From NCBI GenBank assembly GCA_001777575.1, contig MFEL01000018.1, positions 72,264 through 136,263 of the forward strand: DNA of 64,000 bases, read 5' to 3'. Position numbers and translations under genes: made by a program. Under the pieces are notes generated by a model, which did not search any database, was not told the DNA's origin, and saw nothing but the letters and a program-made list of their open reading frames with translations. How positions within the stretch are numbered: position 1 is the stretch's first letter; the number at the start of each line of letters is the position of its first letter. Shown here one piece after another: positions 43,916-46,646 of this stretch. This stretch comes from Candidatus Doudnabacteria bacterium RIFCSPHIGHO2_01_FULL_46_24 (GTDB taxonomy: Bacteria; Patescibacteriota; Doudnabacteria; UBA920; O2-02-FULL-48-8).

Positions 43916-44989
43916 CTATCGCTCTGGTATGACAGCCGTGCCCGTTCTTTCAAAATACTCCCTATCAAAAACCAACTGAAGCAAATCTTGCTCCAAGCCA
44001 TGGCCATTGCAGTGCGTGAGCATACCCAAATACGATTGGATTGTCTGGATAAAAGATCCTTGACTTAATTGCCCGGCTTCAAATTTATTGCGGGCCAGTG
44101 CTATTTTTCTAAACATCCGCCTTTTAGTCTTATTTCTCAAGACTATATGATGGGGCAGAATTATATAGCCCAGAGAATCAATTCCTTGCCCAAATTTTCT
44201 GATCGATACTTTATCGGGGTGCAACGATAGCTGCAGTTCTTGCTGCAAAAGATGTTGAATGGTAGCGCACTGGTTTATCAGCTCGTGTTTATTCGACGAT
44301 AAAATTATAAAATCGTCAGCGTACCGAAAATAATGCCTGGCATGCAGCCGATGTTTAATAAACTGATCTAGTTCATTCAAATATATGTTGGCAAAAATCT
44401 GCGAGCTTAAATTCCCAATCGGAAGTCCTGTAACTCTCTCTCTCTCTCTTGAAAAATTATCCACAACAAAACTTTTAACAACCTCTTCAATTAGCCACAA
44501 AAAGTGTTTGTCGCTGATTTTATTTTTAATTATCTGCAACAGCTTCTGGTGAGAAACGCTGTAGAAAAACTTGTAGATGTCGCATTTGAGCGCAAATACA
44601 TTCCTGCTATTGTTGCGGCTTACCTTTCTTAAAGCGATTGCCAAATTATTAACAGCCAAATGCGTTCCCTTATCCAAACGGGAAGCATAGGAGTGGTAAA
44701 TAAATTTGGGGTCAAATATCCGATACAGTTCATTAAAAATCAGATGATGAACCAGGCGATCACGAACAGTCGCCTTGCTAATAACCCGGTGTTTCGGATC
44801 CCAAATATGGAAAGTAATATAAGGTCCGTGCCGATAAGTCTGATTCTCAAGTTGTCGGTGAAGTTCAAAAATATTATCTTCCAAGTGCCGCTCAAATTCC
44901 AAGACATCCCTCTTCTTTTGTTTCTCTTTCCTAAATTCGTCCCAGCATAAAAATAAATTATCAATATGCAAGAATTGCCTATTCTCCAT
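43916..44989 (-). CDS. DGR-type reverse transcriptase
   Basis: RT motifs are present, including LPIGNLSSQ (the DGR-specific I/LGxxxSQ form of motif 4) and YADDFIIL (motif 5). The N-terminus (CWDEFRKEKQKKRDV..TYRHGPYITFHIWDPKHRVISKATVRDRLVHH) matches the general DGR RT pattern. Confidence 0.85.
   Translation of the reverse strand: MENRQFLHIDNLFLCWDEFRKEKQKKRDVLEFERHLEDNIFELHRQLENQTYRHGPYITFHIWDPKHRVISKATVRDRLVHHLIFNELYRIFDPKFIYHSYASRLDKGTHLAVNNLAIALRKVSRNNSRNVFALKCDIYKFFYSVSHQKLLQIIKNKISDKHFLWLIEEVVKSFVVDNFSRERERVTGLPIGNLSSQIFANIYLNELDQFIKHRLHARHYFRYADDFIILSSNKHELINQCATIQHLLQQELQLSLHPDKVSIRKFGQGIDSLGYIILPHHIVLRNKTKRRMFRKIALARNKFEAGQLSQGSFIQTIQSYLGMLTHCNGHGLEQDLLQLVFDREYFERTGTAVIPER
44434..44449. 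repeat. (CT)8 dinucleotide simple-sequence repeat inside the RT coding sequence (encodes R-E-R-E-R on the minus strand)
   Basis: Read directly and cross-checked against the protein FSRERERVTG. Confidence 0.8.
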
Positions 44990-45304
44990 AAATTAACCGA
45001 ATTTTATAAAACATTTTATCTCTATCTCGCCTCTTTTCCTCAAAAGGATAAATATGCCCTTGGCGCCAAATGCGAAGGCTATATTATTTCAACTCTTGAA
45101 TTATTATTGGCAGCGGAATACGCCAGCAAAAATCAAAGGCTGCAACTAATACAGCAGGCTTCCGTCAAATTCGATATGCTTAAGTCTTTTATCCGTATCG
45201 CCAAGGAGCTGAAAATTCTGGATCAGAAAAAATACATCCGCCTGGAAGCGGAATTACAAGAGATCGGCCGCCAGCTGGGAGGCTGGCAGCGATCTTTGAG
45301 CTAA
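44966..45304 (+). CDS. Avd-like accessory variability determinant (four-helix-bundle protein)
   Basis: 112-aa ORF. Its C-terminus (..EIGRQLGGWQRSL) and the SFPQKDKYALGAK..ASKNQ segment resemble the general Avd/four-helix-bundle family pattern. The first 24 nt are shared with the RT start on the other strand. Confidence 0.75.
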   Translation: MQELPILHKLTEFYKTFYLYLASFPQKDKYALGAKCEGYIISTLELLLAAEYASKNQRLQLIQQASVKFDMLKSFIRIAKELKILDQKKYIRLEAELQEIGRQLGGWQRSLS

Positions 45305-45315
45305 AGCATAGACGC

Positions 45316-45437
45316 AACCCGAGGAGGCACACGCCGCCGGAGTAGTTGTCGTTGGCATTCAGATTCCTGTTGTCGAACTTCAACTTGTCGTCGTTGGCCT
45401 TGAAGTAGAGCGAGTGCTGCTTCGACTGCCAGAATTT
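45316..45437 (-). repeat. DGR template repeat (TR)
   Basis: Aligns with 45706-45827 at an offset of 390 nt. Plus-strand T (minus-strand A) in the TR corresponds to A, C or G in the VR at about 23 positions. There is one non-A difference (TR 45396, G versus A). Confidence 0.85.
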
Positions 45438-45621
45438 GTCTTTTTCCTTCCACTAGCACCGGAGAATAATTACTTATCCTCCTGAATTTCATTTCGTCCG
45501 CAATGGACGTTGAAAAAAGACAAGTAGTGTCTATACTTTTTGCATGTATAGGATTTCAGCGGCTTAAGTCCGTAAACTTAAGCGCATTAACCTACTTTCA
45601 AGAATAATTTTATAACAAAAG

Positions 45622-45672
45622 AAAAACGGGAGCAATCAAGGACTGCTCCCGTCCGGACTCCTCCGAGAGTCC
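45622..45672 (-). terminator. two hairpins downstream of the target gene and VR: GGACTC-ctccga-GAGTCC, and GGGAGCA-atcaaggac-TGCTCCC followed by a T-run on the minus strand
   Basis: Read directly. The second has terminator character. Hairpins immediately 3-prime of the VR are a known DGR feature. Confidence 0.5.
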
Positions 45673-45704
45673 AAAACCCAAAACCCGAGAAACCGACGAA
45701 TGCA

Positions 45705-46646
45705 CTACCCGAGGAGGCACACGCCGCCGGAGTAGTTGTCGTAGGCACACAGATCCCCGCAGCCGAACCACAACCGGTCGCCGAAAGCCCTGAAGTAGAG
45801 CGAGTGCTGCCCCGACTGCCAGAGCACTGCGGCACAGTCCAAACCCGGCGTCTGGTAATCGCGCGCCAGCACGTCTGGGTAGGTGGTCAGCGCTGCTGCC
45901 GGCTCGATGACCCCGCACAGCAACACGTCCGCAGGCAGCGTAGCCATCTGCTCCCGATCTGCCGGGATCGAAAATCCCTGCAGGCAGTTCGGGGAATAGC
46001 CCAGCACAACCGAACCTTCGGCCAGCTTGCGCAGCAGGCGGTTGTGGCTTTGGGCCACGACCTTGACCTGCTTGGCCAGTTCCCCTTCGCGGTAGTTCTT
46101 GAAGCTGCGCCCGGGAAATTGCTGCTCGTAAGCCCGCTTGACCCCGGCCAGCAGCTTGTCGTCGGTAAACTGGCCTAGATCGCCAATCTGCATTTTCGGC
46201 AACGCCAACGGCAACACCATGCCATGAGTAGGCAGGTTGGCCATGAGCGGATCAGTCGCGAGACGGCAGAGAATCGCCGCGAACCGCGCTTCGAACTCGT
46301 CAGCTGACATGAACGCGCTGCCGCCGAAGTGCTCCACGAACCGCTCGAGACGCGCCGCAAAGTCCACTTTCGGCTGGTCGAGGTAGAACGACCGGTTCGC
46401 ATCCACAGCCTTGGCCTTCATGCCTTGGGGTGGGATGCGACGGCCGTTGCTGTCGAACAGCGGTTTGATCGGCTCTTCCAGCACGAACTCGCCCGATTCG
46501 TTTTCCGTGTCTGGCTTGGTAATCTTGAAAACGAGCCTGCCGCTCTTCACGGCTAACGCGTTCTCATTACCGCCAAGGTTGCTGATGAGCGAGCGGTAGT
46601 CGTTCCCGCTCCAAGGCCCCAACGTTTCCCATTCTATGAGTTTCAT
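45705..46646 (-). CDS. DGR target (variable) protein; the VR occupies the last 40 codons or so
   Basis: 313-aa ORF. The C-terminus (..AYDNYSGGVCLLG) is encoded by the VR. The TR-encoded equivalent reads ..NANDNYSGGVCLLG, with Asn (AAC) codons at the varied positions. GGAGGA lies upstream of the ATG. No signal peptide is evident. Confidence 0.75.
   Translation of the reverse strand: MKLIEWETLGPWSGNDYRSLISNLGGNENALAVKSGRLVFKITKPDTENESGEFVLEEPIKPLFDSNGRRIPPQGMKAKAVDANRSFYLDQPKVDFAARLERFVEHFGGSAFMSADEFEARFAAILCRLATDPLMANLPTHGMVLPLALPKMQIGDLGQFTDDKLLAGVKRAYEQQFPGRSFKNYREGELAKQVKVVAQSHNRLLRKLAEGSVVLGYSPNCLQGFSIPADREQMATLPADVLLCGVIEPAAALTTYPDVLARDYQTPGLDCAAVLWQSGQHSLYFRAFGDRLWFGCGDLCAYDNYSGGVCLLG
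45706..45827 (-). repeat. DGR variable repeat (VR) at the 3-prime end of the target gene
   Basis: See the TR entry. Confidence 0.85.

Follow-up and report, generated by a model that had tools for sequence, protein, structure and literature searches.

Organization of the locus

We analysed a 64,000-nucleotide stretch of contig MFEL01000018.1 (the window, in which all positions are counted from the first letter) from a Candidatus Doudnabacteria metagenome-assembled genome (MAG) of the Rifle aquifer, and found in it the components of a diversity-generating retroelement (DGR) at a chromosomal locus. The gene of the target, or variable, protein (45705-46646, minus strand) encodes 313 amino acids, and its last 39 codons form the variable repeat (VR; 45707-45823, minus strand, 117 nt), which corresponds to residues 275-313 and finishes at the stop codon. 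The template repeat (TR; 45317-45433, minus strand) is likewise 117 nt long, non-coding, and contains 30 adenines; it is intergenic and lies on the same strand as the DGR reverse transcriptase (RT) gene (43916-44989, minus strand), 327 nt upstream of the RT start. The gene of the accessory variability determinant (avd; 44966-45304, 112 amino acids) is read from the plus strand, opposite to RT, TR and target. We consider, with a probability of about 0.93, that this locus is a chromosomal DGR of the clade known from Patescibacteria, or the candidate phyla radiation (CPR), because it combines adenine-specific substitutions between the repeats, a DGR-type RT, an Avd protein and a C-terminal VR with a hypervariable target family and a layout that is conserved among related loci.

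Adenine-specific substitutions between the repeats

A sequence-only reading of the window had paired the two repeats at an offset of exactly 390 nt and placed 23 of 24 mismatches where the TR has T on the plus strand. Both a repeat finder and direct alignment returned the same offset, with an ungapped match of 84% identity over 117 nt, and outside these limits identity drops abruptly to chance level. The repeat itself was thus real, whereas the interval first given for it (45316-45437 against 45706-45827) overshoots by 1 nt at the low end and by 4 nt at the high end, so that five of its 24 mismatches (45316 and 45434-45437) belong to flank outside the homology. Counted over that interval, 21 rather than 23 of the 24 mismatches fall at plus-strand T. 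Position 45396 (G), which had been named as the one exception, is indeed the only one inside the true repeat; in the longer interval it is joined by 45316 (A) and 45434 (A).

Within the true repeat there are 19 mismatches, and 18 of them lie at plus-strand T, which is A on the sense strand of the TR. Expressed per template base, 18 of 30 adenines are changed in the VR as against 1 of 87 non-adenines (one-sided Fisher p=2.2e-12). As the sequence-only reading had stated, all three replacements are present: A>G at 11 positions, A>T at six and A>C at one. When the template is read in the frame of the target, 11 of its adenines stand at codon position 1, 19 at position 2 and none at position 3, and all 18 adenine substitutions accordingly fall at codon position 1 or 2. 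The translations reported earlier (..DNRNLNANDNY.. for the TR, ..GCGDLCAYDNY.. for the VR) are right. DGR templates typically use AAY codons, and the same reading had spoken of a classic AAC-codon diversification pattern; the adenine specificity stands, whereas the label is only partly apt, AAC making up 4 of the 20 A-containing TR codons (4 AAC, 2 AAT, 4 AAG, 4 GAC, 2 CAG, 2 TAC, 1 CAC and 1 AGG).

TR and VR share an identical, GC-rich stretch of 36 nt at their 3' ends. A search of the 64-kb window for further VRs by TR match at non-adenine positions recovered only the known pair. Two findings would speak against a DGR, namely substitutions spread over all four template bases and an RT without catalytic residues, and neither applies here. 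The earlier proposal of a TR/VR pair whose VR forms the 3' end of a target gene on the minus strand is therefore supported by the substitutions as well as by the adjacent RT, the Avd and the related loci described below, and only its mismatch count and repeat boundaries needed correcting.

The reverse transcriptase and Avd

The RT gene encodes 357 amino acids by the longest open reading frame (ORF), or 351 or 328 with the alternative starts proposed by other gene callers, and the protein matches RVT_1 with 86.5 bits. Among PDB entries the closest is Bordetella bRT (8ub7, E=1.8e-36), with group II intron and retron RTs ranking behind it. The hallmark of RTs of the DGR clade is [LIV]GxxxSQ in motif 4 together with a catalytic YxDD; in the window protein, IGNLSSQ aligned with IGSLTSQ of bRT, and YADD with YMDD. 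Judged by these motifs and by its best solved match, the enzyme is an RT of the DGR clade.

DGR accessory proteins are of the Avd or the HRDC type; here, Avd was recognized by the Pfam model PF22296 (bAvd) with 72.2 bits against a cut-off of 40. Its gene converges on the TR, the 3' ends of avd and TR being 12 nt apart, and starts back-to-back with the RT gene, with an overlap of up to 24 nt depending on the start chosen. As a consequence of these divergent starts, each promoter must sit inside or beyond the other gene, unless transcription of the TR continues into the RT gene.

The target protein and its family

The 313-residue target matches nothing in Pfam, NCBIfam or the PDB sequences, and it lacks both a signal-like hydrophobic stretch at the N terminus and any signal peptide or transmembrane segment. 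In a confident predicted structure model, the C-terminal ~100-130 amino acids show a weak resemblance to the C-type lectin (CLec)/FGE-like superfamily, with TvpA, Mtd and TaqVP, all variable proteins of DGRs, among the members matched; the CLec fold is one of two, next to the Ig-like one, on which DGRs display variable residues. A Foldseek search of the target against PDB and viral structures gave nothing significant. The protein is identical to the hypothetical proteins OGE80807.1 and OGE96124.1 from Candidatus Doudnabacteria MAGs of the RIFCSP series.

The family of the target comprises 69 members, nearly all from CPR bacteria, and has no Pfam model. Over 67 of these members, the alignment columns that correspond to A-containing TR codons have an entropy of 2.74 bits, compared with 1.11 bits for columns of A-free codons (p=7e-7), and the near-invariant residues W276, S282, L283, F294, S306 and G308 are all coded without adenine. 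A Falkowbacteria member of the family sits in the same kind of cassette, with 16 of 16 TR/VR mismatches at adenines.

Some relatives of the target have no cassette close by. For the homologues from another Doudnabacteria genome (L007, 5001-5939), from Uhrbacteria (L012, 4001-4900) and from a 788-kb contig (L014, 4001-4882), no RT, Avd or TR was found within 4-5 kb; in the case of L007, whose protein is 77% identical to the window target, neither a cognate TR nor an RT lies within 5 kb. These genes could be either remote targets served in trans or orphaned former targets. The VR-like segment of L007 differs from the window TR at 29 positions, 17 of which are adenines.

Two further homologues, P0068 (380 amino acids) and P0069 (370 amino acids), combine the conserved C-terminal module with a TIR/SEFIR domain at the N terminus (TIR_2, E=4e-18). 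Such fusions hint that the C-terminal module may do the sensing in a signalling or defence protein; they bear on the role of the non-membrane targets of CPR DGRs and could be of use to specialists.

A conserved cassette in CPR bacteria

We compared the locus with the 80 most similar RT loci from a scan of one genome per species, in which the RTs are 43-58% identical to that of the window and almost all hosts are labelled Patescibacteria/CPR. The avd gene lies directly upstream of the RT gene on the opposite strand in 71 of the 72 related loci with a recognizable Avd (set L011, L015-L094). An A-biased TR/VR pair, defined as one in which adenines account for at least 75% of the mismatches, is present in 66 of 82 loci. 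The order is nearly always VR, a spacer of ~250-400 nt, TR, a gap of 0-60 nt, avd in antisense and RT; since the relatives share both the order and the antisense avd, the layout of the window is the norm for the clade. A variant cassette was seen in L024, L038 and L057, where the VR sits on the other strand, downstream of the RT, and is thus inverted relative to the TR.

The CPR/Patescibacteria DGR clade is reportedly the subject of Paul et al. 2017 (Nat Microbiol 2:17045). DGRs are well documented in CPR bacteria (PMC10221324, citing Paul et al. 2017). An RT clade restricted to Patescibacteria, whose targets typically have no transmembrane or other recognizable domains, was described as 'DGR clade 2' (Roux et al. 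2021, PMC8144416), and a Patescibacteria-restricted DGR clade also appears in PMC11661182. The window element agrees with this clade in host phylum, aquifer or aquatic source and chromosomal location, in its single target, in which neither a transmembrane nor any further conserved domain can be recognized, and in the order VR-TR-RT; we noted no substantive difference. The literature covered, to which Paul et al. 2017 did not belong, neither gives an antisense avd as a rule of the clade nor discusses this target family.

The locus thus typifies a known clade within a known kind of system, and it is real but ordinary, because that clade has already been described in CPR bacteria. It is not a new kind of DGR, and the group was already known as DGR-rich. 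What it offers is a clean worked example, with a complete and intact cassette, a single target and a confident structure model of that target, in which the hypervariable columns of a 69-member family without a Pfam model coincide with A-containing template codons.

A structured RNA domain 5' of the template repeat

Directly 5' of the TR, on the minus strand, lies a segment (45430-45551) that resembles the Rfam family RT-16. The match to RF03019 is full-length (model positions 1-158) with 30.4 bits and E=0.004 in a 201-nt search; it does not reach the gathering score of 50, and the resemblance is one of structure and sequence motifs only. Apart from a tRNA, no Rfam family reached its gathering score in the window. 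The segment shares with RT-16 the CUAC..GC box, AUAAAAU-CAG, the hairpin, GGUG and the closing helix, as well as the position near an RT gene, and differs from it in that one helix of the model is replaced by a local hairpin. Its predicted structure, on the minus strand throughout, consists of a closing helix P1, in which 45512-45523 pair with 45436-45447 and which finishes 2 nt before the TR; a hairpin P2 (CGUCC/GGACG, within 45430-45551); and a hairpin P3, in which 45474-45482 pair with 45461-45469 around a GUAA loop, between the conserved CAG and GGUG.

Among the relatives, RT-16 was matched neither in 18 loci searched at the gathering score nor in eight searched at E<=1 (22 distinct loci), so the element 5' of the TR across the clade is broader than the Rfam model. 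In an alignment of 65 loci, the sequence 5' of the TR contains the conserved boxes ACUNC-UUGC, AAUAAAAU-CAG, GGUG and GGCAAA. Minimum free energy folds of single sequences from 30 loci gave a common architecture in 29, comprising a closing helix P1 of ~11-13 bp, one or two internal hairpins, and P3 flanked by CAG and GGUG.

RNAalifold predicted nothing on the gappy 65-sequence upstream alignment, and duplex energies compared with mononucleotide shuffles were uninformative in this AT-rich sequence (median z -1.1). We therefore replaced these tests by a comparison of cognate with non-cognate strands and by a trimmed 16-sequence alignment. The sequences of P1 differ widely between loci, yet its strands remain complementary: a best 11-mer pairing of at least 10/11 was found for 41 of 65 cognate strand pairs, compared with 2.3% of non-cognate ones (Mann-Whitney p=4e-29). 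In the related loci, the 3' strand of P1 usually finishes 0-8 nt before the TR. For P3, RNAalifold on the trimmed 16-locus alignment, which had been built from sequence only, predicted seven pairs and showed compensatory double changes in 7 of 7; 96% of the P3 cells were paired, compared with 55% in shuffled and at most 56% in slid controls, and the covariation score was 1.115 as against 0.27 in shuffled or slid controls. The covariation thus supports the prediction that, in about 65 CPR DGRs, an RT-16-like RNA domain of ~90-135 nt is a constant feature next to the 5' side of the TR, which is potentially useful to specialists.

On the other side of the TR, the segment 45228-45316 (minus strand) is a candidate for the part of the DGR RNA that would correspond to the spacer (Sp) of Bordetella, and the last ~25 codons of avd run antisense to it. 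It contains a hairpin of 14 pairs (45261-45295, minus strand), antisense to avd codons 99-110, followed by a second hairpin with a U-run (45237-45252, minus strand); taken together, the two hairpins cover the antisense of avd codons 89-110, among them those of the conserved LGGW motif. Many relatives likewise have a strong hairpin with a U-run directly after the TR, within the 20-90 nt that follow it, with the avd stop codon inside or adjoining it, and this arrangement looks like a bidirectional terminator.

Comparison with Bordetella phage BPP-1 and a possible mechanism

The prototype DGR, that of Bordetella phage BPP-1, has the order mtd-avd-TR-brt. The window element resembles it in the adenine-specific transfer from TR to VR, a VR that closes the target gene at its 3' end, and the Avd partner; in the RT motifs IGxxxSQ and Y(A/M)DD, bRT being the best solved relative of the window RT; and in the GC-rich 3' end of both repeats and a candidate hairpin downstream of the VR, with a CLec-type variable domain as a putative further parallel. 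As in the CLec proteins of other DGRs (Mtd 1yu0, TvpA 2y3c, TaqVP 5vf4), the variable residues fall in the predicted C-terminal CLec/FGE-like domain, and scaffold residues are on A-free codons. Unlike the prototype, the window element is cellular rather than phage-borne, shows no mismatches of the IMH* type, and has a conserved RT-16-like RNA 5' of the TR, while RT-10 was not detected in the window. Moreover, the segment just before its TR pairs ~75 nt further upstream, in P1, and not with Sp.

The motifs RT-1 to RT-19 were found near RT genes, and their authors speculated that some of them act in DGRs; RT-10 was assigned to the Sp element 3' of the TR in BPP-1 (Weinberg et al. 2017, PMC5737381). 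In the literature covered, to which Paul et al. 2017 again did not belong, we found nothing that links RT-16 to DGRs. In Bordetella, the RT-Avd complex cis-primes from RNA 3' of the TR and misincorporates at adenines (PMC6182149; 10.1101/2023.10.23.563531), and a 'cPRT stop' duplex arises in BPP-1 where the stretch immediately before the TR pairs with Sp, which lies downstream (10.1101/2023.10.23.563531).

By analogy with BPP-1, a TR-containing RNA would be transcribed from the minus strand of the window, and the RT-Avd complex would reverse transcribe its TR, cis-priming from RNA 3' of the repeat and misincorporating opposite adenines. The resulting cDNA would take the place of the VR, with the GC-rich 36 nt that are identical in the 3' ends of the repeats as its guide, and could in this way recode as many as 20 codons of the ligand-binding face of the C-type-lectin-like domain, with the A-free scaffold codons remaining fixed. 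Our comparative RNA analysis suggests that the TR RNA of the clade would carry, in addition, a conserved multi-stem 5' domain whose closing helix abuts the 5' edge of the TR, and a 3' hairpin with a U-run, which in the window is antisense to the end of avd.

It is tempting to speculate that the ribonucleoprotein of CPR DGRs is wired differently from that of Bordetella. P1 stops 0-8 nt short of the TR on its 5' side and could therefore act as a stop for polymerization and/or as a docking site for Avd or the RT. Furthermore, since the segment before the TR is the 3' strand of P1 and has its partner upstream instead of pairing with Sp, P1 may take the role of the stop duplex of BPP-1, which joins the avd 3' end to the downstream Sp. 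The 3' hairpin would then serve in priming or Avd binding and double as a terminator shared with the convergent avd. We put this scheme forward tentatively, as a proposal that we think has rather less than an even chance of being right; if true, it would give a function to an orphan Rfam motif and define a second RNA architecture of DGRs.

Alternative explanations and present activity

Several observations weigh against the DGR reading or against its being a textbook case. The sole non-adenine difference between the repeats, at 45396, is a sense-strand C>T change (GCC>GCT) that is synonymous at codon position 3. Four of the 20 A-containing TR codons are AAG, from which adenine mutagenesis can yield TAG stops, making the template less 'safe' than a purely AAC design. 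In DGRs, an initiation of mutagenic homing (IMH) site at the 3' end of the VR and its diverged counterpart IMH* in the TR, with a hairpin/cruciform close by, set the direction of transfer; no distinction between the two sites is visible within the repeats here, and the NCBIfam model NF033474 (DivGenRetAVD) scores 75 bits on Avd, just below its cut-off of 80. A scan for sigma-70 promoters on the minus strand, from the target terminator to the TR, gave no convincing promoter for the TR transcript. Finally, there is no direct sign of ongoing diversification: no VR differences were found among six loci from six samples, all of them consensus assemblies, and near-identical members of the target protein cluster have the same VR. 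As a side observation, the four AAG codons of the TR appear in the current VR as GGG, AGG, CGG and TGG.

Direct repeats 390 nt apart could also arise from an ordinary segmental duplication whose copies then diverged through gene conversion or normal point mutation, without any reverse transcription. Such a history is extremely improbable, and in our view ruled out by the substitution spectrum: 18 of 19 differences concern one base of one copy (p=2e-12), no adenine stands at codon position 3, and all three replacements of A occur, next to an RT and an Avd gene and in a pattern that recurs in 66 related loci. The same spectrum of A>G, A>T and A>C excludes editing of the deaminase type, which would give A>G only. 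Nor do we see a realistic chance that metagenome assembly produced the arrangement artificially, by a chimeric contig or a collapsed repeat for example, as the origin of the window from a MAG might otherwise suggest. The same 8.8-8.9 kb were recovered at 99.98-100% identity on contigs of several independent JGI, ENA and NCBI samples, a 2-kb Logan contig over the target gene is identical, and the layout is conserved in 80 other genomes; on the strength of the independent assemblies we consider an artefact ruled out.

The element might be a fossil DGR, which underwent mutagenic retrohoming in the past, no longer diversifies and carries its VR as a fixed allele. The identity of the VR in all assemblies and cluster members found would agree with this, as would the C>T difference, which could postdate the last homing event, and the homologous targets L007, L012 and L014 that stand without RT or TR within 4-5 kb. 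The ORFs of RT, Avd and target are, however, all intact, the catalytic YADD is retained, and the conserved RNA elements are intact as well. In addition, consensus assemblies conceal minor variants, and the assemblies available are clonal throughout: L004 has two differences in 4.3 kb, both in the RT gene, and the differences in other samples also lie outside the VR. Because the flanks are equally invariant (at most two differences in 8.9 kb), the invariance of the VR says little about activity. We regard a fossil as unlikely, and consider the DGR somewhat more likely than not to be active at present. A 98%-identical variant of the target, P0074, differs at scattered non-adenine sites.

Genomic setting and further non-coding features

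The neighbouring genes are housekeeping genes and include those for TsaE, VanW, an M29 peptidase and RuvB. The GC content of the window is 49.6%, and that of the flanking housekeeping genes 53-55%. Within the element, the RT gene (39.5%), avd (41.3%) and the spacer between VR and TR (41.0%) contrast with the target gene (61.3%) and the TR (55.6%), which suggests that the module of RT, avd and RNA and the target gene may have different histories.

In the Bordetella DGR, a hairpin/cruciform is required for target recognition. The window has a candidate counterpart by analogy, a hairpin (45652-45675, minus strand) in which CGGA forms the 4-nt loop and which sits 31 nt past the VR; its role is uncertain because only 23 of 61 related loci have a comparable hairpin after the VR. 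It is followed by a hairpin of 14 pairs with a T-run (45614-45654, minus strand), which resembles an intrinsic terminator and probably ends the target transcript before the TR unit.

In the related loci, the 90 nt after the VR are T-rich and contain CTT[GT] ~3.7 times per 90 nt, compared with a background of 1.0; the spacings peak at 7-8 nt and give rise to tandem ..CTTGA.. repeats. The window has a weak counterpart, GGGTTTT, which occurs twice on the sense strand at 45671-45686. A run of 6-11 G lies ~80-95 nt after the TR in L036, L052, L063 and L076, and not in L041.

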